Source: Fastidiosipila sp. | Lineage (GTDB): Bacteria > Bacillota > Clostridia > Saccharofermentanales > DTU023 | Assembly: GCA_012511175.1 (NCBI GenBank) | Contig: JAAZGO010000026.1 | Coordinates: forward strand, 9,073 to 73,072 | Reading direction: 5' to 3' | Length of the DNA: 64,000 nucleotides | Part shown: piece after piece, positions 2,379 to 18,522 of the stretch | Layout of the letters: every line of letters starts with the position of its first letter | Position numbering within the stretch: position 1 is the first letter of the stretch | Translations under genes and position numbers: made by a program | The notes under the pieces: generated by a model | What the model was told of the DNA's origin: nothing | Databases searched by the model: none | What the model saw: the letters and a program-made list of their open reading frames with translations, nothing else

Positions 2379-3181
2379 ACCAAAGAAGACCGATTATTCT
2401 TTCCTGTTCGAAAGACGGTCTGCTCATCGACTGCCTTTTCACCTACAACCGGCGGGCCTGCCGACCGCCGAAAAAAGAGACGGCAAAGAGAGAGCCGCTC
2501 TGCGATGTCATCGAGCGCGGTATCCGTGACAACTGGTCGGGCCGGTATGCCATCGACTTGCAACTGGGAGCTGCTCTGGCGGCCTTCTGCAGACAGGCAG
2601 GTACGGCCAACCCTTTCGAAGGAGCGGATTTCCTGCCCGTTGAAGTTCAGATCAAGCGGTTTGGTGAGGGTGCGCTTGTCCCTGCTCTGCTCACTTTCAA
2701 GCAATTTATCACCCGTAAAAGATCTCCTGCCCGAATCTACGTCAGGCACAGCGCTATCCTTCCCTCCCATGCGGCAAGTCCGCTCCACCGGCGGATCTGG
2801 GGAGTCTTTAAGACCGGCCAGCTCGAGAGTATAGGCTTTAATTGGAGTCCATCCCACCCCGGCTACATCACGATTACCAGCAATACAGCGCCAAGCCGTT
2901 TGCCGCAGGTCGCCGCCCACGAAGCCGGTCATCTCTTCGGCCTGGGTGATGCCTATGCTGCCTGGTACCGTTTCTTTGCCGCCGCTCCAAATACCCAAGG
3001 CTACATGATGCGGGACACCTCGCGGGTCCAGCCGGCCGAGATCGCCATGCTGCTTATGGCTCACACGACGGGCCGGATGCAATACTTCCCCCGGGTTTTT
3101 CACCTCCGGAACATCGCAAGGGGGCTTTACAGGACATTCATTCTTTCGATAGTTAAACCTTTCAGAAAACATACCGGTTAG
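2375..3181 (+). CDS. putative zinc metallopeptidase (HExxHxxGxxD, snapalysin/metzincin-like motif)
   Basis: 268 aa. The ATG overlaps the rbsK stop (ATGA). Third codon positions are G/C-rich in this frame. AAHEAGHLFGLGDAY is followed by GYMM, a possible Met-turn. The competing antisense ORF 2117-3172 has no recognisable motif. Confidence 0.5.
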   Translation: MNQRRPIILSCSKDGLLIDCLFTYNRRACRPPKKETAKREPLCDVIERGIRDNWSGRYAIDLQLGAALAAFCRQAGTANPFEGADFLPVEVQIKRFGEGALVPALLTFKQFITRKRSPARIYVRHSAILPSHAASPLHRRIWGVFKTGQLESIGFNWSPSHPGYITITSNTAPSRLPQVAAHEAGHLFGLGDAYAAWYRFFAAAPNTQGYMMRDTSRVQPAEIAMLLMAHTTGRMQYFPRVFHLRNIARGLYRTFILSIVKPFRKHTG

Positions 3182-3318
3182 TCAGATGAGGCGCAAGGAT
3201 CCGCTGCGGACCCATGAGTTATTCGTCTGCAGCCAACCGGGGTAGTCCAAAGTGGTTTTGTCCTTCAACCGCTGTGTTATGATGGGTTATCGAACAGTTC
3301 TGAATCGGAATAATCAAG

Positions 3319-4029
3319 GTGAAAAAAACTGTCCTGATCATCGGCGCAAATGGGGAAATCGGAGTCGCTCTGCAGGAGCACCTTGCCCGGGATTACCGGA
3401 TCATATCCTCGGATATAAATGAGAATATTCATCATTTCCCCGATTACCACCGGATAGATGCCGCAAATCGTGACGAAGTAGTTTCTTTGTTTCAGAAAGA
3501 GAAAATTGATGCCGTGGTTAACCTGGCAGGGCTCCCCGAAATGGAAGATATCCCTGGCGACGAAATGGTCGAACAGATGATCAACTGCTATTTCAAAATC
3601 CCCTATACCTTGTTAGCCGCCATGGAAAAATTTGGAGTCACCAAGTTTGTCCTTGCGAGCAGCAATCATGTGACCGGGTTTTACGAGAAAAATGGATACA
3701 GTTCCTTGGATCGGGAAATAAGAAGCGACGACTACCCGATCAGCATAAGTGTTTACGGTACCTTGAAACTGGCTGCTGAAAACCTATGCAGGAACTTTTA
3801 CATCAATTGCGGCATTAACACGATCTGCCTGAGAATTGGTTCCTATCGAAGGTCAGAGGAAATTATGACTGAACGCTGGACCCGGACGATTCTCTATACC
3901 AAAGACATGGTGAGTTATTTCCGGGGAGCAATCGAGACCGATATTGGATTCGGCATCTATTATGCAGTGTCGGAGAATCCTGATAAACCGTGGTACACGG
4001 AAGACGCAAAGAGAGACCTCAAGATCTGA
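3319..4029 (+). CDS. NAD-dependent epimerase/dehydratase-type SDR
   Basis: 236 aa, GTG start. Rossmann motif GANGEIG and catalytic YGTLK (YxxxK). Visibly lower G+C than the flanks. Confidence 0.7.
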   Translation: MKKTVLIIGANGEIGVALQEHLARDYRIISSDINENIHHFPDYHRIDAANRDEVVSLFQKEKIDAVVNLAGLPEMEDIPGDEMVEQMINCYFKIPYTLLAAMEKFGVTKFVLASSNHVTGFYEKNGYSSLDREIRSDDYPISISVYGTLKLAAENLCRNFYINCGINTICLRIGSYRRSEEIMTERWTRTILYTKDMVSYFRGAIETDIGFGIYYAVSENPDKPWYTEDAKRDLKI

Positions 4030-4048
4030 ACAAAAAGGAGATGCTCTT

Positions 4049-4486
4049 ATGTCATTTTACGAATGGGTTGGAAATATTGCCGCTGTCATTTCCTTTTTTT
4101 CATTAATCGGTAACGTTCTCCAGTACACGAGAAGACGGGAAACGGATAAAGATTTGCGTAAACTGGTGCAAGAGCAATACAACAACTACTATTATATCGC
4201 CAGAAGCCTGACCCGATCCCGCAATGACTCACAGGAGGCGGATTTAAACGAAGCAATTGAATTGTACAAAAATGAATGCAATTACATCCGGGGAATCGCC
4301 GATTCTGCCCGTGAAAGTCTTATCTGTTTTGGCAGGGAACAGCTGAATTACGAAGTCTATTTTGAACACCCGGCTTACCCGGGCAAGTCAGAGTACTGCG
4401 ATGAGGTGTTGATGGGTCTCCCTCCCGAGCTGTCGGCCAGTCAGCTGGTTCAGCGTGAAGCGAGCGATGACCAGACTGTTTCGTAA
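4049..4486 (+). CDS. hypothetical membrane-anchored protein
   Basis: The track ORF 3944-4486 overlaps the SDR gene. The internal ATG at 4049 has AAAAGGAG 8 nt upstream. The 145-aa product has one N-terminal TM helix (WVGNIAAVISFFSLIGNVLQY). I recognise no family. Confidence 0.45.
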   Translation: MSFYEWVGNIAAVISFFSLIGNVLQYTRRRETDKDLRKLVQEQYNNYYYIARSLTRSRNDSQEADLNEAIELYKNECNYIRGIADSARESLICFGREQLNYEVYFEHPAYPGKSEYCDEVLMGLPPELSASQLVQREASDDQTVS

Positions 4487-4707
4487 TCCACCTTTCACGG
4501 TGTGGAACTGCACAACCTGGTCCGTGATTAATTCCAAACCTGCATTGTCATCCCTTTTACGCCAACCTGTCTCTTCTGCGCGGCCACGCGCCCGATACCT
4601 TGGCCGGCACTGGATAAAGGCTGTCTATATTGCCATCACTCACTTTGTAGTCTATGCTGTTCTTTAGCCTTCTGTGAAGGCAAATACATCTATAAGGAGG
4701 AACTGGT

Positions 4708-6513
4708 ATGCCAAATCAAGAACAAGGCAAGGATCTGCCCCTGGCAGATAAGATGAAGGAACAGGTTCAGATGACAACGGCCGCGCCGGATACCGGCGAC
4801 AAACTGGACATGCATGCTTTCTGGCACAGCAGTTCCCACCTTCTGGCCCATGCGGTGAAAAGGCTGTGGCCCGAGACCAAGCTTGCCATCGGTCCGGCCA
4901 TTGAAAATGGTTTTTATTACGACTTCGACCGGGAGGGGGGCTTCTCCGAGGAAGACCTCGAAACCATCGAGCAGGAAATGAAAGAAATCGTCAAGGCCAA
5001 TTACAGGATCGAGCGCTTCACCCTGCCGCGCGATGAGGCGATCGCCTTTGTCAAGTCCCAGGATGAACCCTACAAGCTGGAGATGGTCGAAGCCCTGCCG
5101 GAGGACCAGGAGATTTCCTTCTACCGCCAGGGTGACTTCACCGACCTTTGCGCGGGACCTCATGTCCGTTACACCAAGCAGATCAAGGCATTCAAATTGA
5201 CCAGCCTTTCCGGTGCCTACTGGCACGGTGATGAGCACAATAAGATGCTGTCCCGGATTTATGGCATCTCCTTTCCCAAAAAAGAGGAGCTGGACAACTA
5301 CCTGGCCATGCTGGAAGAAGCCAGGGCCCGCGACCACCGGAAGCTGGGGCGTGAACTTGATCTCTTCATGCTGTCGGAGGCGGGACCGGGATTCCCCTTC
5401 ATGCTGCCCAAGGGCATGATCCTGAAAGACCTGCTGGTCGACTACTGGAAAAAACTGCACGACCGGGCCGGCTACATCCTGATCCAGACCCCCATGATCC
5501 TGTCCCGGACCCTTTGGGAAGAGTCGGGACACTGGGACCATTACAAGGACCATATGTATACCGTCAAGATCGATGATGAGGACTATGCCGTCAAGCCCAT
5601 GAACTGCCCCGGCGCCATGCTGGTCTACAAGAACAAGCCTCACTCCTACCGGGATCTGCCCATCCGTATGGCTGAGCTCGGACTGGTCCACCGCCATGAA
5701 AAATCCGGCACCCTGCATGGCATGATGCGGGTTCGCGCCTTCACCCAGGACGATGCCCATCTTTTTATGACGCCCGATCAGATGAAGGATGAGATCAGCG
5801 GCATTGTCCGCCTGATCGATGATCTTTACCGCAGCTTTGGCTTCCAGTACCGGGTCGAGCTGTCCACCCGGCCGGAAAATGCCATGGGCGCCATCGAGGA
5901 TTGGGACCGTGCCGAAGCGGTGCTCAAGGATGTACTCGACGAACTCGAATCTGACTACAGCATCAACGAGGGTGACGGTGCCTTCTACGGACCCAAGATC
6001 GACTTTCATATCCGCGACGCTATCGGCCGCGGCTGGCAGTGCGGGACCATCCAGTTGGATTTCCAGATGCCCCAGCGCTTCGAGCTCGAATACACCGGCT
6101 CTGACGGGGACAAGCACCGGCCCATCGTGGTCCACCGCGTGGCCTACGGGGCTCTGGAGCGTTTCATGGCCATCCTGATCGAGCACTACGCGGGGAAGTT
6201 TCCTTTCTGGCTGGCGCCTGATCAGGTACGGGTCCTGACTATCTCACAGGACCATGCGGATTACGGGGAAAAGGCCGTTTCGGAATTGAAGAATCGTGGC
6301 CTGCGGGCGGAACTTGACGCGCGTGATGAGAAGATCGGCTACAAAATCCGTCAGGCTCAGCTGGACAAGGTGCCCTATATGCTGGTAGTCGGCGACAAGG
6401 AAATCGAAGGCGGAACCGTTTCAGTCCGCAGTCGGGATCAGGGCAGCCTTGGATCCCTTCCGCTGGACGCTTTCATTGAGAGAGCGGTGGCAGAAAACCA
6501 ATCAGCCTTATAG
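4708..6513 (+). CDS. thrS: threonine--tRNA ligase (lacks N-terminal TGS domain)
   Basis: 601 aa with a strong RBS (AAGGAGG). Editing-domain motif HSSSHLLAHAV sits near residue 41. Class II core HRKLGRELDLF ... RVRAFTQDDAH is present, with a C-terminal anticodon-binding domain. Confidence 0.95.
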   Translation: MPNQEQGKDLPLADKMKEQVQMTTAAPDTGDKLDMHAFWHSSSHLLAHAVKRLWPETKLAIGPAIENGFYYDFDREGGFSEEDLETIEQEMKEIVKANYRIERFTLPRDEAIAFVKSQDEPYKLEMVEALPEDQEISFYRQGDFTDLCAGPHVRYTKQIKAFKLTSLSGAYWHGDEHNKMLSRIYGISFPKKEELDNYLAMLEEARARDHRKLGRELDLFMLSEAGPGFPFMLPKGMILKDLLVDYWKKLHDRAGYILIQTPMILSRTLWEESGHWDHYKDHMYTVKIDDEDYAVKPMNCPGAMLVYKNKPHSYRDLPIRMAELGLVHRHEKSGTLHGMMRVRAFTQDDAHLFMTPDQMKDEISGIVRLIDDLYRSFGFQYRVELSTRPENAMGAIEDWDRAEAVLKDVLDELESDYSINEGDGAFYGPKIDFHIRDAIGRGWQCGTIQLDFQMPQRFELEYTGSDGDKHRPIVVHRVAYGALERFMAILIEHYAGKFPFWLAPDQVRVLTISQDHADYGEKAVSELKNRGLRAELDARDEKIGYKIRQAQLDKVPYMLVVGDKEIEGGTVSVRSRDQGSLGSLPLDAFIERAVAENQSAL

Positions 6514-7417: not shown

Positions 7418-8587
7418 ATGACGAGGGAAACTCAGCCGGACAAGATGGTCAGAACCCGCCCCCGCCTCGGCGGCGCCCTGATTTTTTTGTCTGCATCGGC
7501 CCTGACTCTCCTGATCCTGATCATATTTCGCGAAATCGCTTTCCGGCGGCCGGCCCTGGCGGACGCTTACGCGACCCGGATCTTTTCACCTCTTGCGGCC
7601 ATCTGGGCCTGGCCATCCAGCCAGTTTTCCTTTTCCCTGACCGAATTTTTCGCGCTTGTCGGCACACCGGTCCTCTTCCTCCTTCTCATCCTGGGGATCA
7701 TCCGCCTCTTCAGGAAGCGGGCTCACCGCCTCCGCCGTTTATTGAAACCGGCTTTGGTGATCCTGGGCATTGCCTGCCTCCTGCTCTCCCTTTTCCTGGT
7801 TTTTCACGGTTTGAATTACGCCCGCCCGCCCCTGGCCGGTAAGCTGGGTCTTGACCTCAGGGAGCATTCAGCCGATGAACTGGAAGCGGCCGTGCGCCGC
7901 CTGGCTAGGGCAGCTGTCCGGGCACGCCGGGATCTTGCCGAATCGGATGACGGCACCGTCGCGATCGGCCCGCTGAATACCGTTTGGAAGGCTGCTTTTG
8001 ACGGCTGGGAGCAGGCGGCCTTGCGATGGCCCGCCCTGGAAAGCCCGGTCCGTGCCCGCCCCAAGGGCGTGCTTCTGTCCCATTACTGGTCCTATACCAA
8101 TATCGTGGGCCTCTACATGCCTTTTTTTATCGAACCCAATATCAATATCGATCAGCCTGCCTTCATGATCCCGTCAACCACGGCACACGAAATATCACAC
8201 ACGCGCGGTTTCGCCAGGGAGGGCGACAGCGATTTCGCAGCCTTTCTAAGCTGTGCCTGCCACCCCGACCCCCTCTGGCGTTACTCAGGCCTGATCAGCG
8301 CCTGGAAAAGTGCCGGAAACAGGCTGTGGGAGGAGGACCGTCAGCGCTGGGAGGCAGCTTACAGGGAGGAGCTTTCACCTGCTGTCATCCGGGATCTCGA
8401 AGCCGAATCGCTTTACTGGGAAGCTTTTGAAACACCGGTGGCTGATTTTTCGGAAAAGGTCAACGATGCCTACCTCAAGGCCAACAGGGAAGAAGAAGGT
8501 GTAAAAAGCTATGGCGCCGTGGTCGATCTTTTGCTGACCTGGCTTGACACCGCCGAAGCGGAGCGGATCCTTTTCCCCGAGCCGTGA
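7418..8587 (+). CDS. DUF3810-type membrane protein (HExxH)
   Basis: 389 aa with N-terminal TM helices. TTAHEISHTRGFAREGDSDF is typical of the DUF3810 family. Confidence 0.7.
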   Translation: MTRETQPDKMVRTRPRLGGALIFLSASALTLLILIIFREIAFRRPALADAYATRIFSPLAAIWAWPSSQFSFSLTEFFALVGTPVLFLLLILGIIRLFRKRAHRLRRLLKPALVILGIACLLLSLFLVFHGLNYARPPLAGKLGLDLREHSADELEAAVRRLARAAVRARRDLAESDDGTVAIGPLNTVWKAAFDGWEQAALRWPALESPVRARPKGVLLSHYWSYTNIVGLYMPFFIEPNINIDQPAFMIPSTTAHEISHTRGFAREGDSDFAAFLSCACHPDPLWRYSGLISAWKSAGNRLWEEDRQRWEAAYREELSPAVIRDLEAESLYWEAFETPVADFSEKVNDAYLKANREEEGVKSYGAVVDLLLTWLDTAEAERILFPEP

Positions 8588-8590
8588 GAA

Positions 8591-8599
8591 GATGGTTTC
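8591..8599. repeat. left copy of 9-bp direct repeat GATGGTTTC (target-site duplication)
   Basis: Identical 9-mer at 17044-17052. Both copies lie immediately outside the terminal inverted repeats. Confidence 0.8.
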
Positions 8600-8600
8600 T

Positions 8601-8624
8601 ATATATTCCAATTAGAGGGTGATG
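8601..8624. repeat. left terminal inverted repeat
   Basis: ATATATTCCAATTAGAGGGTGATG versus the reverse complement of 17018-17041, ATATATTCCAACCATCGGGTGATG. That is 20/24 identical, with an 11-bp outer block and an 8-bp inner block perfect. Confidence 0.75.
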
Positions 8625-8664
8625 GCTAGTCTCCCGCGTCATATAGAGCCTAGAATTAAAGGGT

Positions 8665-8704
8665 AAGCACATATTGTGGTATTTTCACGCAATATGTGCT
8701 TTTT
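8665..8704 (+). terminator. 12-bp perfect hairpin + T-run just inside the left end
   Basis: AAGCACATATTG-13 nt-CAATATGTGCTT followed by TTTT. It is positioned to stop read-through from the DUF3810 gene into the element. Confidence 0.5.
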
Positions 8705-8798
8705 ATGACAAATTTTAGGTCTTTCAGGTGGAGAAAATCAACTCAAAATAATCTTAAAGATAGTCATTTCTAAACCGTTAAAGTTTCTCAAAATGCTC

Positions 8799-8821
8799 TA
8801 TAATGATATTCAGCTTATAAG
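8799..8821 (+). promoter_or_regulatory. candidate -10 (TATAAT 8799-8804) and downstream palindrome CTTATAAG (8814-8821) ahead of the wHTH gene
   Basis: Perfect -10 hexamer but only a weak -35. An 8-bp perfect palindrome lies about 10 nt downstream. Assignment is speculative. Confidence 0.3.
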
Positions 8822-8846
8822 ACATTTTATTTTAGGAGTGATTTTC

Positions 8847-9122
8847 ATGGAATTTACCTTAGAGTTCTTTATGAACGACAGATACCAGCTTCTAAAACTT
8901 CTTCACGACAATCAGGTTAAAATCAAAGATGACTTCTATGTTCCGCTGTCTCAGCAGGAGATGGCAGATATGGCAAGAATGTCAAAATTGAAAACCAACC
9001 GAATTATCAACGAATTGATTGAAGAAGGATTTTTAGAAAGCTACAAAAACAAACGTGGCAAATACGAAATAACTGAAAAGGGTATGAAAGCCCTGTTCTT
9101 AATTCAAAAGACTAACGCCTGA
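8847..9122 (+). CDS. small winged-helix DNA-binding protein (possible controller of the R-M operon or element)
   Basis: The ATG at 8847 follows TAGGAGTG by 6 nt. The track start 8793 overlaps the TATAAT box. The 91-aa product contains LSQQEMADMARMSKLKTNRIINELIEEGFLE...KRGKYEITEKG (HTH plus wing). Confidence 0.6.
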   Translation: MEFTLEFFMNDRYQLLKLLHDNQVKIKDDFYVPLSQQEMADMARMSKLKTNRIINELIEEGFLESYKNKRGKYEITEKGMKALFLIQKTNA

Positions 9123-9141
9123 GTAAAGGAGGGCTATAACT

Positions 9142-10923
9142 TTGAATGAAATACAAAGAAACCATCAAACAACAATCAACGTGACTCAAAAGGCCAACCT
9201 TATTTGGGCAATAGCAGACATCATTGGGCAGGGTCTTTATAAACCCCACGAATACGGCAAGATTATTTTGCCTATGACCGTCATCAAGCGATTCAATGAC
9301 GCTCTTCTTCCGACCAAAGCAGAGGTCATGAGGGAATATGAAAAGACGAAACACCTGCAGGTTGCTGACATTCTTTTAGAGAGGGCTTCGGGGTATCTCT
9401 TTTACAACATCAGCCCTTTCACTTTTGAAAATCTTGTTCAAGACCCTGACCACATCGAAGCAAACTTTAGAGCCTTCTTGGGTGGCTTCTCTGAAAATGT
9501 AAAAGATGTCTTGGATAACTTTGAGTTTGAAAAAGAGATATCAAAGCTGGCAAATAACGGAATGCTCTTTTTGATTATCCAGGAGTTTAATAAACCGAGT
9601 GCTTACATGGGTCCTGACCTTATTTCCAGCACGGACATGGGCTACGTCTTCGAGGAATTGGTCAGACGCTTTTCTGAGTCCTACAACGAACAAGCAGGAG
9701 CTCACTTCACAAGCCGAGACATTATCTACCTCATGACAGACCTTCTTATCTCAGAAGACAGGGAAGTTTTGACTCAGGAGACGGTTGGGAAAACAGTTTA
9801 TGACCAAACCATGGGAACCAGCCAAATGCTGGCTTGTATGGAAGAAAGGATCAAAGACCTAAACAAAGAAGCTGGCGTAATTTTGTTCGGACAAGAATTA
9901 AATCCCGAAACTTATGCTATAGCCAAAGCGGATATGCTCATCAAGGGTGGCAACGCTGAAAACATGAAACTTGGGAATACGCTCACCAATGATCAGTTCC
10001 CTGGCTATACCTTCGACTACTGTATTTCCAATCCTCCCTTTGGGATTGACTGGAAGGTAGAAAAATCCTTTGTTGAGGCAGAAGCTAAAAAAGGGAATGC
10101 AGGACGTTTTGGTGTAGGACTTCCCCGAATTAGTGACGGGCAGCAGCTCTTTGACCTGAATGGACTTGCTAAGCTTAAGGATACGGGGAGAATGGCGATT
10201 GTCCATAATGGCTCTCCCTTGTTTGTGGGGGACGCAGGGTCAGGTTCCAGCGAAATCAGACGCTACATCATAGAGAACGACTGGCTGGAAGCAATCGTTC
10301 AATTACCCAATGACAGCTTTTACAACACGGGGATTACAACCTATGTCTGGATTATGTCAAAGAATAAAGCCCCTCACAGAAGAGGGCGAGTTCAGTTGAT
10401 TGATGCGTCCAAGATGTTTGACAAGAGGCGTAAATCCATCGGACATAAAAGAAACGATATATCAGAAGCTTGCAGGGAAGTTATCATTCAGGCTTACGGA
10501 GAGTTCGAAGACAAAGAATACGAGCTTGGTGACCGTGTTTGTGAGTCCAAGATTTTTGAGAATATTGAGTTTGGTTTTAATCGAATCGTGATTGAAACGC
10601 CTGAATATGATGAGAACGGACAGGCTGTAAAAAATAGGGGCAAAAAGGTTGCGGATACCAAGAAGCGTGACTATGAGAATGTTCCCCTCACCGAAGACAT
10701 TGACAGTTATTTTGAAAGAGAGGTAAAACCTTACAATCCTGACGCTTGGATTGATAAGAACAAAATATCTGTTGGATATGAGATTCCCTTCACTCGTTAT
10801 TTCTACAAGTTCCAGCCGCCTGAGAAGTCTGAAGATATTGCTGACCGGATTATGGCGATGGAAAAAGACCTCATGGTTTCTCTTCATGAATTGTTTTCTG
10901 ACGGAGGTGAGGCAGTTGAGTAG
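9142..10923 (+). CDS. hsdM: type I restriction-modification system, methyltransferase subunit
   Basis: 593 aa, TTG start 8 nt after AAAGGAGGG. HsdM N-terminal motif ANLIWAIADII..YKPHEYGKIILPMTVIKRF. SAM-binding region DQTMGTSQML and catalytic NPPFG (CISNPPFGIDW). Confidence 0.9.
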   Translation: MNEIQRNHQTTINVTQKANLIWAIADIIGQGLYKPHEYGKIILPMTVIKRFNDALLPTKAEVMREYEKTKHLQVADILLERASGYLFYNISPFTFENLVQDPDHIEANFRAFLGGFSENVKDVLDNFEFEKEISKLANNGMLFLIIQEFNKPSAYMGPDLISSTDMGYVFEELVRRFSESYNEQAGAHFTSRDIIYLMTDLLISEDREVLTQETVGKTVYDQTMGTSQMLACMEERIKDLNKEAGVILFGQELNPETYAIAKADMLIKGGNAENMKLGNTLTNDQFPGYTFDYCISNPPFGIDWKVEKSFVEAEAKKGNAGRFGVGLPRISDGQQLFDLNGLAKLKDTGRMAIVHNGSPLFVGDAGSGSSEIRRYIIENDWLEAIVQLPNDSFYNTGITTYVWIMSKNKAPHRRGRVQLIDASKMFDKRRKSIGHKRNDISEACREVIIQAYGEFEDKEYELGDRVCESKIFENIEFGFNRIVIETPEYDENGQAVKNRGKKVADTKKRDYENVPLTEDIDSYFEREVKPYNPDAWIDKNKISVGYEIPFTRYFYKFQPPEKSEDIADRIMAMEKDLMVSLHELFSDGGEAVE

Positions 10924-12172
10924 ACGAATGAAAGATTCAGGTGTTGAGTGGATAGGGGAGATACCAGAAGACTGGGGAATGTCCTTATTAGGTAATCACT
11001 TTAGAGAGCGAACAGAGAGAGTTTCTGACTTTGATTATGAGCCACTATCCGTGACAAAAAGAGGGATACTCAGGCAACTTGAAACTGTTGCTAAAACGTC
11101 GAATAGAGACGACAGGAAGAAAGTCTGCATCAATGATTTTGTTATAAACTCACGCTCGGATAGAAAGCAATCGTGCGGTTTATCGTCACTAAACGGGTCG
11201 GTCTCTGTAATAAACACTGTGCTTGCGATAAGAGATATTGACCCAGAATACGCAAAGTATCTATTAGACAATTACGGTTTCGCTGAAGAGTTTTATAGGT
11301 GGGGAACAGGAATAGTCGATGATCTTTGGTCCACAAGATACAGCTCAATGAAGAAGATTCGAATTCCTATTCCTCCTCAACAGGTTCAGTCGAGAATCGC
11401 CACCTACCTCGACCAAAAAACCGCAACCATCGACCACATTATTGAGAAGACAAAAGAATCCATTGAAGACTACAAGCTATACAAACAATCCCTGATAAGT
11501 GAAGCCGTCACCAAGGGGCTTAGCCCTGATATGAAACTCAAAGATAGCGGTGTTGAGTGGATTGGGGAGATGCCTGAGCATTGGGCTATAAGCAAAATAA
11601 AGCACGTTGCGGATTTTGCTCCAAATCTGAACTTGGAGTTTGATGAGGAACAACCTATCGGCTACGTTCCTATGGATCGAGTGAAAAGCGGCTACCTGTT
11701 GCCCGGAGAAAGCTTGTTCCAAAATCTGAGCACCGGACTTGTTCCTTTCCAAGAGGGTGATATCGTCATGGCAAAGGTGACGCCATGTTTTGAAAATGGA
11801 AATATTGCGGTTGCGAAGAATTTATCACAACGAGTTGCTTACGGAAGTTCAGAGCTGTTTGTTTTTAGGAGTCATGGGGTAGATACTGACTATCTATATT
11901 ATTTTCTTCAAACAAATCTCTTTAAAGATGCTTCTGTTGCAACAATGACGGGGACGGGGGGGCTAAAACGCGTATCATCTTCTTTCGTAAGGAACGCCTA
12001 TCTTCCCATGCCTTCAGTTGTAGAGCAAAAAGAAATCTCTTCCCATCTGGGTAGAGAAATAAGGAAGATGGAAGAAACGATTATTCAAAAAGAACAACTC
12101 ATTGAAGACTTAGAAGCTTACAAAAAATCCCTCATCTACGAAGTTGTCACAGGCAAAAGGGAGGTTCAGTAA
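10916..12172 (+). CDS. hsdS: type I restriction-modification system, specificity subunit
   Basis: Two-TRD architecture. The conserved segment is repeated (MKDSGVEWIGEIPEDW at the N-terminus and LKDSGVEWIGEMPEHW mid-protein; DNA about 10931-10977 versus 11540-11586). Coiled-coil spacers are present (EDYKLYKQSLISEAVTKG / EDLEAYKKSLIYEVVTGK). TTG 10916 (GGAGG 8 nt upstream, overlapping the hsdM end) is preferred. ATG 10928 is an alternative. Confidence 0.85.
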   Translation: MSRRMKDSGVEWIGEIPEDWGMSLLGNHFRERTERVSDFDYEPLSVTKRGILRQLETVAKTSNRDDRKKVCINDFVINSRSDRKQSCGLSSLNGSVSVINTVLAIRDIDPEYAKYLLDNYGFAEEFYRWGTGIVDDLWSTRYSSMKKIRIPIPPQQVQSRIATYLDQKTATIDHIIEKTKESIEDYKLYKQSLISEAVTKGLSPDMKLKDSGVEWIGEMPEHWAISKIKHVADFAPNLNLEFDEEQPIGYVPMDRVKSGYLLPGESLFQNLSTGLVPFQEGDIVMAKVTPCFENGNIAVAKNLSQRVAYGSSELFVFRSHGVDTDYLYYFLQTNLFKDASVATMTGTGGLKRVSSSFVRNAYLPMPSVVEQKEISSHLGREIRKMEETIIQKEQLIEDLEAYKKSLIYEVVTGKREVQ

Positions 12173-12174
12173 TC

Positions 12175-15100
12175 ATGGACTACAAAGAAAAACGCTTTGA
12201 AGAGGACATCGAACAATGGCTTCTGATCTATGGCGGTTATACCAAAGGCGACCAAAAAACCTATGACAGAAAAAAAGCCCTTGACCTCCCCAAGCTGGTT
12301 GAGTTCATTCAAGCAACCCAACCCAAAGCATGGGAACGCTACGTCTATACCTACAAAGCGGACGCAGAAAACAAGCTATTCAAACGGTTTACTGAGGAAG
12401 TTGAATTAAACGGACTTCTCCATGTTCTAAGGCGAGGGATAACCGACCACGGGATCAGACTCCGTGTCGCAGCCTTCCCTCAAGAGTCAACCCTCAATCC
12501 GGAGGTCGTAAAGAACTATGAAGCCAATATCCTGACAGTCACCCGGCAATTCAAGTATTCCACAGCCAATGAAAATTCGATTGATATGGTGTTGTCATTA
12601 AATGGCATACCTATTGTTGCTTTGGAGCTGAAAGACCAATTTACAGGTCAGAATGTTGATAACGCCAAAAAGCAATTCATGTATAACCGTGACCCAAGAG
12701 AACTCTGCTTCCAATTCAATAAACGCTTCCTGGTTTGTTTTGCGGTTGACTTAGATGAAGTTGAGATGACAACAAAGCTCGAAAGGGGCAACACCGTCTT
12801 CTTACCTTTCAATCAGGGAAGTAGTGGTTCGGGGAAAGTAGGAGGGGCAGGGAACCCCAAAAACGTTGAGGGCTATCCAGTTTCATATTTATGGGAACAG
12901 GTTTTGAAAAAAGACTCTCTCATGGATCTTTTGAGGCGTTATCTCCATTTAGATCAAAAGGTTGAGAAAGTCGTAAAGAACGGCAAGGAGACCCGAAAGA
13001 GAGAAGAGAAACTCATTTTCCCCCGCTACCATCAGCTCGATTCTGTCCGGTATCTTTTAGGGGACGCAAGAGCAAATGGCAGCGGTCAAAACTACCTTAT
13101 TCAACACAGTGCCGGTTCAGGAAAGTCAAACTCCATCGCTTGGCTTTCTTATGGATTGGCAAGCCTCCATGATGAGAATAACCAACATATCTTTAATTCG
13201 GTTATCGTGGTGACTGACCGGAAGGTATTGGACAATCAGCTCCAAAGAACCATCTCTTCTTTTGACCATACCAAGGGGCTTATTGAAATAATAGACGACA
13301 AAAAGACCTCTCAGGATTTGAGGAAAGCCATCAATGACGGGAAGCGGATTATTGTCACGACCCTTCAAAAGTTCCCCTTCATCTACGAAGAAATTGATGA
13401 AGTGAAAGGCAAACGCTTTGCTGTCATCGTTGACGAAGCCCATTCAAGCCAGACGGGAAAGAGTGCGGCAAAGCTACGGGAAGGTCTGACGGATACGGAA
13501 GAAGCTCTCAGGGAATACGAGAGGATTGAGTCAGCCGAAGAAAGGGAAGCAGAAGACTACGAAGATAAGATTGTAAATGAGCTTTTGGCTCACGGCCGCC
13601 AGGAGAATCTTTCTTTCTTTGCCTTTACCGCAACCCCCAAACAAAAGACGTTAGAAGTATTCGGCAAGAAGACACCCGAAGGCTCTTTTATTGCTCACCA
13701 TATTTACAGCATGAGACAAGCCATTGAAGAGGGCTTTATCCTGGATGTCTTGAAAAACTACATGACTTACAAAACCTGCTACAAGATTGCCAAAGAAACA
13801 GAAGATAACCCAGCATTACCGTCTTCCCTTGCGACAAGAACCATCAAAAACTACCAGTCGCTTCACCCTTATAACCTCCAACAAAAAACGGCCATCATTA
13901 TTGAACAGTTCCGAGAGGTCACAAAAAAGAAAATCGGAGGAAGAGCCAAAGCTATGGTGGTCACGTCTTCCCGTCTTCATGCGGTGAGATATTACCATGA
14001 GTTCAAACACTACATTGAACGAAAAGGTTATGAGGATGTCGATATTCTGGTTGCCTTTTCGGGGATTGTGAAAGACCATTCCATTGATTACACCGAAGAG
14101 GGGATCAATAAGAGAAGAGACGGCAGCACCATCAAGGAAGACCAGCTCAGAGACGATTTTCACGGAGATGATTTCAATGTTCTGATTGTTGCTGAAAAAT
14201 ACCAGACTGGATTTGACGAACCACTCCTTCACAGTATGTTTGTCGATAAAAAGCTGGAAGGTGTGAAGGCAGTCCAAACTTTATCAAGGTTGAACCGTAT
14301 TTACCAAGGAAAAGAAGACACCTTCGTTTTGGATTTTGTGAATACGGGTGATGACATTCAAGAAGCCTTCAAGCCTTACTATGAGGCAACCATTCTTGAT
14401 GAAGAAATAAACATCAACTTGATTTACGATACGAGGTCAGCCCTTCAGCAATACGGTCTTTACAATAACGAGGACATAGAAGAATTCGTCAAGATTTACT
14501 ACAAGAAGGGGAAACAGACGGAGACTGATTTGGGGCGTATGACTTCCGCATTAAAACCCGCTGTCAAACGCTACGAGGATCTGGACGAGGATGAGCGTTT
14601 TGGTTTCAAGCGTATCGCAAGAAACTTCGTCAGGTGGTATGCCTATATCACTCAGATTGCCAGAATGTTTGATAAAGAACTTCACAAGGAATATGTCTTT
14701 GTTTCCTACCTTGAAAAGCTTCTTCCCAAAGTCAGTCCGGATCCCGTTGATTTAGAGGGAAAGCTGAAACTTGAATTCTACAAATTACAGCAGACCTTCA
14801 AGGGCGACATTAGTTTCTCACCCATCGGGGAAGAACAGGTCATATATAACCCTGAGAACATCAACCCTGAATCCAGTCCGGAACCGGACGAGCTCTTGGA
14901 AACTATCATCAAGCGTATCAACGATCGTTATACGGGAACGTTTTCTGAAAGCGATAGGGTAATTGTTGAGACAATTTACAACCGAGGAATCAAGAACAAC
15001 AAAGAAGTTGAAAAATATGTCAAAAGCAACGACATGGAAGTTTTCATAAACAGTATTTTCCCCCAAGTTTTCAAGGCAATAGCTCAGAGCCTTTATGCTG

Positions 15101-15198
15101 AATCAATCGAGTCATACACGAAGCTTTTTGAGGACAGAGAACTCTACGCTTCGGTCATGGAAGAGATGGCACGACAAGCCTATAAAGAGCTTGGATAA
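12175..15198 (+). CDS. hsdR: type I restriction endonuclease, R subunit
   Basis: 1007 aa. N-terminal PD-(D/E)xK-like nuclease region (IDMVLSLNGIPIVALELKDQ). SF2 motor with Walker A-like QHSAGSGKS and DEAH box (VIVDEAHSSQTG), then helicase C motifs (AEKYQTGFDEP, QTLSRLNR). Confidence 0.9.
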   Translation: MDYKEKRFEEDIEQWLLIYGGYTKGDQKTYDRKKALDLPKLVEFIQATQPKAWERYVYTYKADAENKLFKRFTEEVELNGLLHVLRRGITDHGIRLRVAAFPQESTLNPEVVKNYEANILTVTRQFKYSTANENSIDMVLSLNGIPIVALELKDQFTGQNVDNAKKQFMYNRDPRELCFQFNKRFLVCFAVDLDEVEMTTKLERGNTVFLPFNQGSSGSGKVGGAGNPKNVEGYPVSYLWEQVLKKDSLMDLLRRYLHLDQKVEKVVKNGKETRKREEKLIFPRYHQLDSVRYLLGDARANGSGQNYLIQHSAGSGKSNSIAWLSYGLASLHDENNQHIFNSVIVVTDRKVLDNQLQRTISSFDHTKGLIEIIDDKKTSQDLRKAINDGKRIIVTTLQKFPFIYEEIDEVKGKRFAVIVDEAHSSQTGKSAAKLREGLTDTEEALREYERIESAEEREAEDYEDKIVNELLAHGRQENLSFFAFTATPKQKTLEVFGKKTPEGSFIAHHIYSMRQAIEEGFILDVLKNYMTYKTCYKIAKETEDNPALPSSLATRTIKNYQSLHPYNLQQKTAIIIEQFREVTKKKIGGRAKAMVVTSSRLHAVRYYHEFKHYIERKGYEDVDILVAFSGIVKDHSIDYTEEGINKRRDGSTIKEDQLRDDFHGDDFNVLIVAEKYQTGFDEPLLHSMFVDKKLEGVKAVQTLSRLNRIYQGKEDTFVLDFVNTGDDIQEAFKPYYEATILDEEININLIYDTRSALQQYGLYNNEDIEEFVKIYYKKGKQTETDLGRMTSALKPAVKRYEDLDEDERFGFKRIARNFVRWYAYITQIARMFDKELHKEYVFVSYLEKLLPKVSPDPVDLEGKLKLEFYKLQQTFKGDISFSPIGEEQVIYNPENINPESSPEPDELLETIIKRINDRYTGTFSESDRVIVETIYNRGIKNNKEVEKYVKSNDMEVFINSIFPQVFKAIAQSLYAESIESYTKLFEDRELYASVMEEMARQAYKELG

Positions 15199-15202
15199 AG
15201 AA

Positions 15203-15262
15203 GGGGGTATATAATTTCCCCCAATGATTACACGAAGCCGTCAGAGAGCGTCTGGCGGCTTC
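15203..15262. terminator. two hairpins between convergent hsdR and the transposase gene
   Basis: GGGGG-10 nt-CCCCC (15203-15222), T-rich on the minus-strand side. GAAGCCG-15 nt-CGGCTTC (15234-15262). Confidence 0.4.
15222..15234. repeat. inner inverted repeat, left copy (CAATGATTACACG)
   Basis: 12/13 match to the reverse complement of 16987-16999 (CATTGATTACACG). The pair closely brackets the transposase gene. Confidence 0.5.
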
Positions 15263-15265
15263 CTG

Positions 15266-16879
15266 CTACATGAAACGACTGGCACGAATCGCTTCTAAAT
15301 CTTCCTCTGAAATCTTCATGGGTTGGTTCTCGGAAATCAACCGATAAAGAATATTTTCAATGTCAGGGTGCTTCAAAATCATAGAGATAAGAACCCATTT
15401 GTTCATTTTTCTGTAGCCCCTAATTCCACACTCTTTAGAGATTTCATAGAGCCTGGAATTAGGCAAGTCGAACAGATATTCACGCCTGTTGAAACTTCTA
15501 ACACCATCTTCTTCATTAAACTTGAAGTATTTATTGTTGGTGGCTTCCCTTGCTCTCTTGGTATTCTCACGAAGGAGGGTAGTATATCGAGAGCTTGGCA
15601 TAGGAAGGTTGATTTCTTGTTGCATGACTTCGGGAAGAGTGTAATTCGCCATTCCTTTCAAAATTTCAACAAAAATCATTTCAGCGTCTTTTTCCGATGA
15701 GGGATACTTGCCATGCGTCACTCTCCAATTTCGGATGTAATTGAAAAAGCCAACATAGTATTCAAGATACTTCGTTGAAACATTCGTCATGTTCTTAACG
15801 ATATAGAGCTTAATGTCCTTATGAAGCTCATTGACACGGGCGAGATTTAACCCTTTTTCTTTTCGAAGTTTCAAAAAATCTTCATAGAGCAGTCCACCCA
15901 CGTTATTGATGTGATCGATTTCTTCTCTTCGGTAAAGTCTATTCATAATGACAGCATTTTCCCGTCTTGCTTCTTTTACTCCAAAGACATCCGCAAGGTC
16001 TGCATCCACAACTCCGTTGCTTTTCAAAATCTCGTCATAGTTAGACGGCCGAACATAATGAGGATAATTGAATATTCCACACACTTCCTTATAGACGGTG
16101 TTGGCGTCCGAGCAAACATAAGCAGGATGGTCAAGGTGTTCTACAAAAAAGTCTGTAATCAGTTCTTTGGTGACCCGACCCATCGCTGTCACTTTGCAAA
16201 CACAATAGCCCCTGTTATCAATGGCTGTGACTACCGTGGCAAATTCAGGACCCATGACTCCCACTATTGAGGGCTTACGACCATAACGGGGTTTCCTCTT
16301 TGTGTCTTTTGAAAGATAGGAAACAAGCCCCCTGCTTCCCTTTTGACTTTCTCGAATAAAGGTTTCATCTACTTGGACAACCCCACTCAGAAGAGGCGTA
16401 TTCATTTTCGAGAGGGCATGGATTAGTTTCATACGCCAGAACCAGACCGTCTTGATATTGATTCCCTCATAGCCATAATCTCTTTCCAAAACATTCTGCA
16501 TGGATTTGAGAGAAAGATTGTTGATTGTCATTTGGAGCATTTTGACCCACGCATCCCAATGCCAGTTGTTCTTTTCAAGGATGGTTCCCGTGAAGCGTGT
16601 AAATCTCTTATGACAAACCTTACACAGATAACGCTGCGAGCCATCAGACCGCTTACCATTCTTGACGACATCCTTGGACTGACAGCTCGGGCAGACACTA
16701 TTGATGTCATGCTTTTCGAGTTGAGATTGAAGGCTGTTTGTGATGGCTTGTTTGACTTCATTATCAAAGCTGACCCCCGACTCTTTTGAGTAGCCGTCCA
16801 CCAGCTTCTTCATGGCGTGAAAGGGGAGCTGTGAGAAGATTTCTTGTAATTCTTGTTCTGAATAAGTCTTCTGGTTCAT
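15266..16879 (-). CDS. IS1595-family (ISXO2-like DDE) transposase with long C-terminal extension
   Basis: ATG 16879 follows GAGAGGAGG; the track's upstream start is less likely. Zinc ribbon CPSCQS...YLCKVCHKRF, then FTGTILEKNNWHWDAWVKML. DDE_Tnp_IS1595-like VVQVDETFI ... VCSDANTVY ... NELHKDIKLYIVKNMTNVSTKYLEYYVGFFNYIRN. The 537 aa compare with roughly 300 aa for typical family members. The C-terminus carries a Rho_N/SAP-like motif (LYEISKECGIRGYRKMNKWVLISMIL). Confidence 0.8.
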   Translation of the reverse strand: MNQKTYSEQELQEIFSQLPFHAMKKLVDGYSKESGVSFDNEVKQAITNSLQSQLEKHDINSVCPSCQSKDVVKNGKRSDGSQRYLCKVCHKRFTRFTGTILEKNNWHWDAWVKMLQMTINNLSLKSMQNVLERDYGYEGINIKTVWFWRMKLIHALSKMNTPLLSGVVQVDETFIRESQKGSRGLVSYLSKDTKRKPRYGRKPSIVGVMGPEFATVVTAIDNRGYCVCKVTAMGRVTKELITDFFVEHLDHPAYVCSDANTVYKEVCGIFNYPHYVRPSNYDEILKSNGVVDADLADVFGVKEARRENAVIMNRLYRREEIDHINNVGGLLYEDFLKLRKEKGLNLARVNELHKDIKLYIVKNMTNVSTKYLEYYVGFFNYIRNWRVTHGKYPSSEKDAEMIFVEILKGMANYTLPEVMQQEINLPMPSSRYTTLLRENTKRAREATNNKYFKFNEEDGVRSFNRREYLFDLPNSRLYEISKECGIRGYRKMNKWVLISMILKHPDIENILYRLISENQPMKISEEDLEAIRASRFM

Positions 16880-16986
16880 CGGAAACCTCCTCTCAATCAA
16901 GGTGCGGTTCATTTCCTTACACCATAAGGCTATCATAATCTCTCGAAAATATCAAGCAGAAAATGGGCATATTTGCATTCTGAAGC

Positions 16987-16999
16987 CGTGTAATCAATG
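16987..16999. repeat. inner inverted repeat, right copy
   Basis: CGTGTAATCAATG. A second TGATTACA-type motif lies at 17012-17021 (reverse strand), adjacent to the outer IR. Confidence 0.5.
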
Positions 17000-17017
17000 T
17001 ATATTGGTGTTTGTAAT

Positions 17018-17041
17018 CATCACCCGATGGTTGGAATATAT
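17018..17041. repeat. right terminal inverted repeat
   Basis: See the left IR entry; 20/24 identity. Confidence 0.75.
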
Positions 17042-17043
17042 GT

Positions 17044-17052
17044 GATGGTTTC
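17044..17052. repeat. right copy of 9-bp direct repeat GATGGTTTC
   Basis: Perfect match to 8591-8599. Confidence 0.8.
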
Positions 17053-17059
17053 GGGCATC

Positions 17060-17087
17060 TTGACATCTTCCGCCGGGAGCTTAGAAT
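17060..17087 (+). promoter_or_regulatory. sigma-A-type promoter of the MBOAT operon
   Basis: TTGACA (17060-17065), 16-nt spacer, TAGAAT (17082-17087), about 20 nt before the ATG at 17107. Confidence 0.5.
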
Positions 17088-17106
17088 GGGGCAATAGGAA
17101 TAAACT

Positions 17107-18522
17107 ATGGTATTTTCATCCTTGGTCTTTTTATATGTCTTCCTGCCCGCCTGTCTGGTCGCTTCCTGGCTGACAAGCCGTACGCGCGCGCAAAACGTTT
17201 TCCTCCTCCTGGCTTCTCTCTTTTTCTACGCCTGGGGCGAACCAATTTATGTGATCCTGCTTCTCCTTACCTGCTTTGTGATCTGGCTGTGCGGGATTCT
17301 CCTGGGACGGGCGCGTTCGCGCCGTGCGCGCAGGGGCTGGCTTGTGGCAGCCATTATTTTTGCCCTGGCAAGCCTTGTCTATTTCAAATACACGGGCTTT
17401 ATGGTGGAGATTCTGAACACGCTGCCCTTTTTCAATTTTCAGGTACCTCAGATAACACTGCCGATCGGCATCTCCTTCTATACCTTCCAGGCCCTGACCT
17501 ACATCATTGATCTTTACCGGGGTGAAATCAGGATCCAACGTTCCTACGCCCGTTTTCTGCTCTATGTCTCCCTCTTTCCCCAGTTGATCGCGGGCCCCAT
17601 CGTCCGCTATGCCGACATTGAGCGGGAACTCCACCGCCGGGAAATCACTCTGGATGGGATGGCTGCAGGGATCCTGCGCTTTCTCGGGGGTCTGGCCAAG
17701 AAGGTCCTGATCGCCAACTACGCCAGTGAGATCGTCGAACTCTGCCTGGAGTCCGGGCACTTCTCCCAAATCAGTGCCGCGACTGCTATTTTGGGAATCA
17801 TGGCCTTTGCCATCCAGATCTATTTTGACTTCTCGGGCTACTCTGACATGGCCATCGGCCTGGGGCTCATGTTCGGATTTCATTTCCTTGAAAACTTTAA
17901 GCATCCTTACATCTCATCCACCATTACGGAATTCTGGCGGCGCTGGCACATCTCCCTCAGCACCTTTTTCCGGGACTATGTCTACATCCCCCTGGGCGGC
18001 AACAAACGCCACCGTTTTCGCAATACCCTGATTGTCTGGTTTTTGACCGGTCTTTGGCATGGGGCCAACCTCAACTTCGTGGTCTGGGGCCTTTATTATT
18101 TCCTGCTCCTCATGCTGGAAAGGATCCTGATCCTGCCGCACAGGGATAAGATCCCCCGCCTGATCCGTCATCTGTGGACCATGCTGGCCGTGCTGGTGGG
18201 ATGGACCTTGTTTTATTTCACAGAAACTGCCCGCTTCCTGACATTCTGGGGCAGAATCTTCGCTCCGGGGCTGGCCGGTTTTGCTGACATCGAGGCCAAG
18301 ATCCTCTGGAAACAGCACATCCTGTTCATCCTTCTTGCCGCTGTGTTTTCAACGCCACTTCTTCCCTGGATCCGCAAGCGATTCAAAGATCCGCTCCACC
18401 GGCTGGAGTACTCCCGCATGGGGGGCTTCTTGAGAACAGCCGGTGCTCTCTTTCTTCTTTTTGTATCGACGGCCTCACTGGTCGCCTCAAGCTACAATCC
18501 ATTTTTATATTTCCGATTCTAA
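17107..18522 (+). CDS. MBOAT family O-acyltransferase (AlgI/DltB-like)
   Basis: 471-aa polytopic membrane protein. FWRRWHISLSTFFRDYVYIPLGGNKR carries the conserved MBOAT His. Confidence 0.9.
   Translation: MVFSSLVFLYVFLPACLVASWLTSRTRAQNVFLLLASLFFYAWGEPIYVILLLLTCFVIWLCGILLGRARSRRARRGWLVAAIIFALASLVYFKYTGFMVEILNTLPFFNFQVPQITLPIGISFYTFQALTYIIDLYRGEIRIQRSYARFLLYVSLFPQLIAGPIVRYADIERELHRREITLDGMAAGILRFLGGLAKKVLIANYASEIVELCLESGHFSQISAATAILGIMAFAIQIYFDFSGYSDMAIGLGLMFGFHFLENFKHPYISSTITEFWRRWHISLSTFFRDYVYIPLGGNKRHRFRNTLIVWFLTGLWHGANLNFVVWGLYYFLLLMLERILILPHRDKIPRLIRHLWTMLAVLVGWTLFYFTETARFLTFWGRIFAPGLAGFADIEAKILWKQHILFILLAAVFSTPLLPWIRKRFKDPLHRLEYSRMGGFLRTAGALFLLFVSTASLVASSYNPFLYFRF

Follow-up and report, generated by a model that had tools for sequence, protein, structure and literature searches.

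A type I restriction-modification system as the probable passenger of an IS1595-family transporter insertion sequence in Fastidiosipila sp.

In a 64,000-nucleotide stretch of DNA from Fastidiosipila sp. (GenBank assembly GCA_012511175.1, contig JAAZGO010000026.1, positions 9,073 to 73,072 of the forward strand; hereafter the window, with position 1 as its first letter), we found a low-G+C block that carries a gene for a winged-helix protein, the hsdM, hsdS, and hsdR genes of a type I restriction-modification (R-M) system, and a gene for an IS1595-type transposase convergent with them. Very probably this block, at 8599-17043, is one insertion, namely a unit transposon in which a single IS1595-type transposase carries a complete type I R-M system as its passenger. 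R-M systems move mostly on plasmids, phages, and islands, and compact transposon forms have been reported as isolated cases.

The block measures 8,445 bp, with 42.5% G+C vs 56.3% in the remaining window, and it is the sole strongly deviant G+C block of the 64 kb. Measured in 300-bp windows, the G+C fraction is 0.57-0.58 up to ~8550, 0.32-0.48 within the element, and at least 0.53 past 17100. An earlier reading made from the DNA letters without database searches (the sequence-only reading) had placed the drop in the right position, while its figures of 58-60% and 40% were slightly too extreme. The inverted repeats reported by that reading are likewise there, with arms at 8601-8624 and 17018-17041 that match at 20 of 24 positions, and a degenerate pattern spanning both arms finds nothing else in the window (two matches, the arms themselves, with 0.00 expected in shuffles). 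Outside these arms, the direct repeat GATGGTTTC occupies 8591-8599 and 17044-17052, with a gap to the inverted repeat of 1 nt at the left end and 2 nt at the right end. As the window contains four copies of this 9-mer (0.92 expected), the evidential weight of the repeat comes from its position beside the inverted repeats and not from its rarity. The 9-mer had first been taken as a 9-bp duplication flanking an element that starts at 8600; it is indeed present on both sides, but the target duplication is most likely 8 bp, and the matching ninth base, C at 8599, is most likely the first base of the element. This register follows from the shared end of the element's relatives (two bases, then ATAT...) and their unambiguous 8-bp duplications. 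It is also fixed by two sequences described below, L105, which has the same outermost AC at the proximal (transposase-near) end beside an unrelated flank, and L110, which has the same outermost CT at the distal (transposase-far) end and an exact 8-bp duplication. As a side observation, the heptamer GATGGTT is found at 17026-17032 within the right terminal repeat and again 18 nt on, at 17044-17050, as the first seven bases of the duplication; the recurrence is probably chance, and the L105 copy, with its different flank, has GTTGGTT in place of GATGGTT within the repeat.

The insertion point lies 3 nt past the stop codon of a DUF3810 gene and 8 nt ahead of the -35 box of the MBOAT/DHHW operon. 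Removal of the element leaves a short spacer with the MBOAT promoter TTGACA-16-TAGAAT (17060-17087 of the window), just as had been predicted, and the reconstructed junction reads CCGTGAGAAGATGGTTTCGGGCATC. Searching for an uninterrupted allele had been proposed as a check; the junction, taken as an exact 21-mer, had no match in JGI metagenomes, but an empty site was reached in a sister species via protein homologues of the flanking DUF3810. In this sister species (L092-L095; DUF3810 78% identical), DUF3810 and MBOAT are separated by a 64-bp spacer, and the AT-rich block is absent altogether rather than present without its direct repeat. A more distant species (L096, L097; DUF3810 61% identical) also has an uninterrupted DUF3810-MBOAT spacer, the length being 62-64 bp across both species, and the gene order ThrRS, PNP_UDP, DUF3810, MBOAT, DHHW, DUF6935, malic enzyme is kept in both. 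When the element is removed, the window aligns to the spacer of the sister species, TTGACA -35 box included. Given this uninterrupted spacer and the full synteny, the block is an insertion in the lineage of the window.

The gene content given by the sequence-only reading (wHTH-hsdM-hsdS-hsdR, with an IS1595-type transposase gene as the sole mobility gene) was confirmed with Pfam, NCBIfam, and PADLOC. The transposase consists of N-terminal helices, an IS1/IS1595 zinc ribbon, a helix-turn-helix, a DDE/RNase-H core, and a ~155-aa C-terminal extension specific to its clade. It scored 88.4 bits with the NCBIfam IS1595 DDE profile NF033547 (transpos_IS1595; cut-off 75), and its zinc-binding domain was recognized by NF050000 (IS1_IS1595_Zn; 50.5 bits, cut-off 28) and by Pfam Zn_ribbon_InsA (37.2, cut-off 26.1). 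Four cysteines (C63, C66, C86, and C89) are invariant among homologues, as are D171, D258, N350/E351, and K357, a conservation that by itself suggests a catalytic motif of the DDN(E)K type. The AlphaFold2 (AF2) model shows a zinc ribbon, helix-turn-helix, RNase-H-like core, and helical C-terminal part, i.e., a DDE-transposase fold, with the IS256-family ISCth4 transposase as the best fold match. We collected 330 full-length homologues of ~537 aa, and clade members carry generic source names (“IS1 family transposase” or “zinc-binding domain-containing protein”). Canonical IS1595 transposases align to residues ~60-380 only, at 24-35% identity, and distant IS1595 transposases at this level of identity were all that plasmid and phage collections yielded, with no carrier of the element among them.

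The cargo is a type I system by its composition, as hsdM, a two-domain hsdS, and an hsdR with nuclease and helicase domains are all intact. The lengths of the hsd genes are conserved in copies that are 91-96% identical, and the ratio of nonsynonymous to synonymous substitution rates (dN/dS) is 0.051 for hsdM (vs L108) and 0.039 for hsdR (vs L105). That the winged-helix gene and hsdMSR follow one another so closely (gaps of 19 nt before hsdM and 2 nt before hsdR, and an overlap of hsdS with the hsdM stop by 8 nt) suggests that the four genes form a single operon. An internal 46-nt repeat occurs in hsdS at 10931 and 11540. Products of 414 and 418 aa were considered as specificity alleles of hsdS and rejected, the DNA being identical and the difference one of start-codon calling. 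With four passenger genes, one transposase gene, and two end copies, the block has the makeup of a transporter insertion sequence (tIS); a composite transposon was rejected, as there is a single transposase gene and a single pair of ends.

Copies in different flanks, whose search had been suggested together with that for an empty site, were found at 95.8%, 91%, and 80% identity, so that the transposase is indeed accompanied by these terminal repeats and by hsdMSR at other places. The closest copy (L105/L106, from two sequencing runs) is 95.8% identical over 4,981 bp (12069-17047 of the window, comprising the transposase, hsdR, and part of hsdS) and ends in the same AC-ATATATTCC beside another, AT-rich flank. 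The L108 copy is 91% identical over the promoter, winged-helix gene, and hsdM, differs in the hsdS recognition domains, and adjoins HNH and AbiJ-like genes, while L107 adjoins a glyceraldehyde-3-phosphate dehydrogenase gene and matches at 80% identity over hsdM and the winged-helix gene. With the values for the hsd genes, the dN/dS of the transposase (0.052, vs a copy located elsewhere) and that of the winged-helix gene (0.059) give a range of 0.039-0.059 and point to purifying selection, by which the transposase, hsdR, hsdM, and winged-helix genes stayed functional while the element relocated.

Scanning metagenome contigs with the end pattern additionally recovered two transposase-less derivatives, L110 (LSQX01311374.1) and L109 (MTBK01021572.1). 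The former, at 187-1773 of its contig (~1.6 kb, low G+C), has an outer distal end identical at 26 of 26 positions to that of the window, followed by a gene for a 281-aa lipoprotein, a second, degenerate distal arm with a hairpin, and the proximal arm and end. It is bracketed by the 8-bp duplication TCAACTTA and adjoins a release-factor-like gene in a different organism (host ~52% G+C), and it comes from a digester metagenome project (LSQX01) that also holds the window species. As it lacks a transposase, it must have moved in trans, and its structure suggests one route of cargo capture, namely by an extra outer end.

A transposase scan of one genome per species identified 78 loci, hosted by Streptococcus, many Clostridia, Erysipelotrichaceae, Fusobacterium/Streptobacillus, and a Cloacimonetes bin. 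At each locus, inverted repeats were sought by comparing the region upstream of the transposase with 10 kb downstream. The relatives share the end TTATAT(T/A)ATCCAAT... and are 2.3-9.5 kb long, and their target duplications are 8 bp in at least 17 insertions (e.g., TAAAACTG, TAAGTCTC, TTTCCTAC, ATGCAAGC, GCTAATTA, GCTAGTTT, and GAATTTTC) and 9 bp in three; no target preference was evident among these 20 duplications. Short terminal repeats with an 8-bp duplication are as expected of the IS1595 family. In 11 scan loci, a homologue of the winged-helix gene (57-70% identical) adjoins the distal end on its inner side and is oriented opposite to the transposase gene. The Streptococcus cargos comprise a HindIII-like nuclease with an N6/N4 methylase (L017), fused nuclease-methylases of 818-893 aa with an S subunit, BcgI-like type IIG (L018, L035, L019, L024, and L028), a methylase with a short S subunit (L056), and a Dam-class methylase with a NOV_C protein (L020). 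Type III mod and res genes are carried in Erysipelotrichaceae (L054) and Fusobacterium (L032), and in Cloacimonetes (L044) only a 133-aa open reading frame without a Pfam match lies between the winged-helix and transposase genes. Nested fragments of other insertion sequences (IS; TnpB-like and IS256-like) were also seen in L032.

Comparisons among these elements indicate both movement of the whole unit and replacement of its cargo. L018 and L035 are 99.6% identical over 6.3 kb and have unrelated flanks and different duplications, which indicates recent movement of the entire unit. L018 and L019, by comparison, have arms that are 99.3% and 98.6% identical around unrelated cargo, and L017, L028, and L056 combine arms of 92-96% identity with three different cargos. 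The homology of the arms breaks exactly at the transposase stop codon on one side and ~160 nt downstream of the winged-helix gene on the other. The winged-helix protein P0206 recurs unchanged in at least four contexts, which hold two different cargos between them, and in several of these the transposase has decayed (an IS3 insertion, a truncation, and an internal deletion). The interval from the transposase stop to the winged-helix gene is thus, across the clade, an exchangeable slot for type I, II, IIG+S, or III systems. In more distant transposase relatives, where the winged-helix gene is missing, the cargo is an IceA/methylase pair, an extracytoplasmic function sigma factor pair, BspA-type surface proteins, GrpB, or small genes of unknown kind, or there is none. 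The sequence-only reading had regarded a full three-gene type I passenger as unusual; judging from the surveyed loci, R-M carriage is instead the norm in this transposase clade, though the type I system is the largest cargo seen. In several relatives the transposase gene is damaged (an IS3 insertion in L098, truncation in L099, internal deletion in L102, frameshift in L056, and a remnant in L114) and the R-M genes are kept, a pattern that would fit domestication after arrival.

The winged-helix gene had been listed as plain cargo; it is present as described, but it is not incidental, since it heads several R-M types in many elements. Its AF2 model (predicted local distance difference test score 89.7) has the N-terminal domain of RbkR, the DNA-binding domains of Crp/CooA, and MarR as best folds. 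Homologues with 57-97% identity head R-M operons in other elements; the close family comprises 45 clusters, all of ~91 aa, and a profile search returned 343 representatives, nearly all of 85-100 aa. The distal arm including this gene is conserved beside the same end in at least ten other elements. Relatives' distal arms also have a hairpin and T run at the position of the inward-facing hairpin of the window, with different sequence, and the hairpin likely serves to insulate the element from DUF3810 read-through. A simple terminator scan overlooked it, as its loop is 9 nt and the scan was limited to 3-8 nt.

A subterminal motif, TTTCT(C/T)GTTG(A/T)GAA (TTTCTCGTTG(A/T)GAA), is found inverted in both arms of L017, L018, L019, L024, L028, and L056, ~86 nt from the proximal and ~118 nt from the distal end. 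We considered it as an operator for the winged-helix protein and dismissed it: relatives that lack the winged-helix gene have it too, in the proximal arm it coincides in part with the -35 region of the transposase promoter, and the window copy is degenerate. It may instead serve the transposase as a binding site close to the ends.

Several observations pull in the other direction. The R-M-carrying elements were not resolved as a single clade in a quick neighbor-joining tree, and the window transposase scores 17.6 with the Pfam IS1595 model PF12762, under the cut-off of 27 (this family is recorded for several transposase homologues that are 50-60% identical). R-M operons devoid of both transposase and terminal repeats can likewise begin with the winged-helix gene: downstream of guaA in C. 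perfringens (L111-L113), it is followed by a methylase and an S subunit and then by FtsK, Rep, and integrase genes, and in a conjugative-element context (the L116-L119 set), free of IS1595-type transposase and terminal repeats, it heads a Dam-class methylase and NOV_C. The gene is therefore a companion of R-M genes and not a strict backbone gene of the transposon, and a role as regulator of the R-M operon is more likely for its product than one in transposition. A shared 10-mer operator upstream of 15 winged-helix genes was not above shuffled controls, and with this result and a winged-helix fold, classification as a C-protein-controlled R-M system was rejected. As for movement, the outermost dinucleotides of the window element are unequal (CT vs AC), whereas relatives carry the same dinucleotide at both ends, and this could hamper end recognition. 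Finally, the element occupies the same one site in all 20 contigs with the exact transposase and in all 23 with the exact DUF3810 protein, and positions 8561-17100 of the window (8,540 bp) are 100.000% identical in L001-L003, L005, L007, and L008, six separate records from four sources (NCBI, JGI, ENA, and Logan). The lack of any difference over 8,540 bp suggests a single clonal population across many anaerobic digesters.

Whether the window copy moves at present is, in our judgment, about an even call. One contig of the same species (L004, Logan ERR12510701) has a clean 4,977-bp deletion of 9052-14028, from codon 69 of the winged-helix gene into hsdR, by which hsdM, hsdS, and most of hsdR are gone and the transposase and both ends are kept. 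No obvious microhomology was seen at the breakpoints, and the deletion could be a real variant or an assembly artefact. The description of the element as still mobile in the sequence-only reading is plausible in view of the 537-codon frame, which is intact with all family-invariant residues present and has a dN/dS of 0.05 vs the copy elsewhere, the perfect target duplication, and the distal end of L110, but one site and zero differences speak against it. The element might instead be an immobilized relic that arrived by transposition and is now a fixed, domesticated defence locus, its transposase kept for another reason or not yet decayed. This we hold to be a serious possibility, albeit short of an even chance. 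A relic would account for the single site and zero polymorphism across samples and for the unequal terminal dinucleotides, and the relatives mentioned above, in which transposases decay while R-M genes persist (L098, L099, L102, L056, and L114), would be its precedents. The intact and constrained transposase frame and the perfect duplication are harder to reconcile with a relic, and L110, with its identical distal end and own duplication from the same project (LSQX01), indicates that a cognate transposase was active in trans not long ago.

Two separate events would be another way to assemble the block: an ordinary ~2-kb IS might have landed beside a pre-existing R-M island, the left repeat and direct repeat being chance or a solo end. 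Many transposase relatives do lie on contigs of 1.8-2.7 kb, and cargo-less members of ~2.3 kb exist. We nevertheless regard such a history as very improbable, since no further copy of the end separates hsdR from the transposase gene, the 64 kb contain two matches and no more, and the next-best repeat pairs (15-17 of 22) are at the level of noise. Moreover, the duplication encloses the 8.4-kb unit and not the transposase alone, the whole block is missing in the sister species, L105 holds the transposase and hsdR contiguously in another flank, and the distal arm with the winged-helix gene stands beside the same end in the at least ten other elements noted above. A genomic island inserted by site-specific recombination, with the short direct repeat as attachment (att) core, would also present a compositionally foreign block between short direct repeats, and yet it has next to no probability in our view, as no integrase or recombinase domain lies in or beside the block, no tRNA gene lies in the window, and the flanking repeats vary at every insertion of the family, as target duplications do and att sites do not.

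We also compared the element with known systems. The transporter ISs MTnSag1/tISSag10 and tISCpe8 are ~1.7-2 kb in size. They belong to the IS1595 family and come from Streptococcus agalactiae and Clostridium perfringens, respectively (Siguier et al. 2009, as cited in PMC5704250 and PMC11891212), and are described in PMC5704250 as having ~25-bp terminal inverted repeats, an 8-bp target duplication, and passenger genes. The window element resembles them in its one IS1595-type DDE transposase, ~25-bp ends, 8-bp duplication, and passengers inside the repeats. It differs in that the known ones carry a lincomycin-resistance gene, whereas here 8.4 kb hold a type I system of three genes behind a winged-helix gene, and in its 537-aa transposase, with which canonical IS1595 transposases match as partially as stated above.

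Multi-gene unit transposons such as Tn7-like elements carry defence systems, including type I R-M, as variable cargo between conserved arms, and Tn7-like elements use several transposition proteins and dedicated attachment-site targeting. The window element, unlike these, has one IS-type transposase and its family no evident target preference. C proteins are small DNA-binding proteins with an XRE-type helix-turn-helix that belong to type II R-M systems. The arrangement here is similar in that a gene for a small DNA-binding protein heads a mobile R-M operon with unrelated enzyme genes, but the protein is a winged helix and precedes type I, II, IIG, and III systems.

Isolated transposon-like R-M units with 8-bp duplications were reported by Furuta, Abe, and Kobayashi in 2010 (PMC2853133). 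One of these, in Neisseria gonorrhoeae NCCP11945, combines type IIG and S-subunit genes with a further gene that bears an IS1-type transposase motif (COG3677); its inverted repeats are 26 bp, its target duplication is 8 bp, and a relative has the empty site (PMC2853133). Going by the published description, its layout is that of the Streptococcus members found here; it differs in that its type IIG gene is truncated and its transposase is a remnant, probably inactive, and the authors left the mover open (PMC2853133). A type I system, winged-helix gene, or element family was not described for the units in PMC2853133. Mobile insertion cassettes and MITEs (miniature inverted-repeat transposable elements) are non-autonomous IS derivatives (PMC3129680), to which L110 and L109 (ends and fused arms, no transposase, an unrelated lipoprotein gene) are comparable, while the window element encodes its own transposase. 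The literature, with ISfinder and REBASE outside the comparison, yielded no account of the 537-aa clade or its winged-helix head, of such an element with a type I system inside, or of conserved arms between which cargo is exchanged. Transporter ISs are thus already a known kind, and the R-M-carrying group headed by a winged-helix gene appears to be undescribed.

Taken together, the following mechanism can be proposed. The zinc-ribbon/DDE transposase would recognize both imperfect 26-nt terminal repeats, and the whole 8.4-kb unit would have been inserted by 8-bp staggered cuts at the target. At the far end, the terminal repeat, terminator-like hairpin, promoter, and 91-aa winged-helix gene would form an insulated expression head, presumably driving the winged-helix gene-hsdM-hsdS-hsdR operon from the distal promoter, convergent to the transposase gene. 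The type I system should then methylate a bipartite site and restrict unmodified incoming DNA, and cargo would most likely be exchanged by homologous recombination between conserved arms of different elements. We hypothesize further, and only tentatively as we think it rather unlikely to hold in full, that the element belongs to a widespread, undescribed IS1595-type lineage serving as a plug-and-play vehicle for every R-M type, in which the winged-helix protein and insulated promoter would be a universal head controlling whichever system fills the slot, the arms would permit R-M exchange by recombination, and the head would also work in integrative and conjugative elements.

The coordinates of all features are compiled in the table; in addition, a mild dip in G+C (48.6% vs ~56%) was seen upstream of the element, at 3001-5000 of the window.

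Table. Features of the element and its insertion site, in window coordinates
Feature	Position	Strand	Basis or remark
DUF3810 (host gene)	7418-8587	+	
Target-site duplication, left copy GATGGTTT	8591..8598	.	Identical to 17044-17051
Whole element, IS1595-family transporter IS (unit transposon; very probable)	8599..17043	.	Composition; absent at the sister species' syntenic site; 100% identical in six other contigs
Distal (transposase-far) terminal inverted repeat CTATATATTCCAATTAGAGGGTGATG	8599..8624	+	Same 26 nt (26/26) in the L110 and L109 ends; fits family consensus TTATAT(T/A)ATCCAATTAGAG
Inward-facing hairpin followed by T run, terminator-like	8665..8701	+	RNA fold -19.3 kcal/mol, z = -4.6
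TATAAT, -10-like box of the presumed winged-helix/hsd promoter	8799..8804	+	All aligned distal arms have such a box, 25-45 nt ahead of the ribosome-binding site
Stand-alone winged-helix protein, 91 aa, first gene of the cargo operon	8847..9122	+	Pfam HTH_Crp_2 and HTH_45; AF2 model
hsdM, type I methyltransferase, 593 aa	9142..10923	+	Pfam HsdM_N and N6_Mtase; PADLOC MTase_I, 751 bits
hsdS, specificity subunit with two target-recognition domains, 418 aa	10916..12172	+	Pfam Methylase_S (two stretches); PADLOC Specificity_I, 352 bits
hsdR, type I restriction/translocase subunit, 1007 aa	12175..15198	+	Pfam HSDR_N, ResIII/SWI2_SNF2, T1R_D3; PADLOC REase_I
Two hairpins lying between the stops of the convergent hsdR and transposase genes, candidate bidirectional terminator (presumed function)	15203..15265	.	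-32.3 kcal/mol (+), -30.6 (-); z = -5.4, -4.5
Transposase, 537 aa	15266..16879	-	NCBIfam IS1595 and IS1_IS1595_Zn profiles; AF2 model
Proximal (transposase-near) terminal inverted repeat ACATATATTCCAACCATCGGGTGATG (minus strand)	17018..17043	-	L105/L106 share the end including the outermost AC, in an unrelated flank
Target-site duplication, right copy GATGGTTT	17044..17051	.	Identical to left copy
MBOAT (host gene)	17107-18522	+	

For the host, the insertion accounts for the one strongly foreign block in 64 kb of its genome, and it puts a new terminator-like hairpin behind one gene and leaves 8 nt between the transposon end and the next operon's promoter. For the family, these data show that one IS-type transposase carries whole R-M systems, a three-gene type I system included, between unrelated genomes, and the near-identical arms around unrelated systems would offer a simple route for rapid turnover of restriction repertoires. 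The winged-helix protein, tied to four R-M types and three kinds of mobile element, is a candidate general R-M regulator outside the C-protein family, and if the tentative universal head were real, it would let R-M systems establish safely in a new host.

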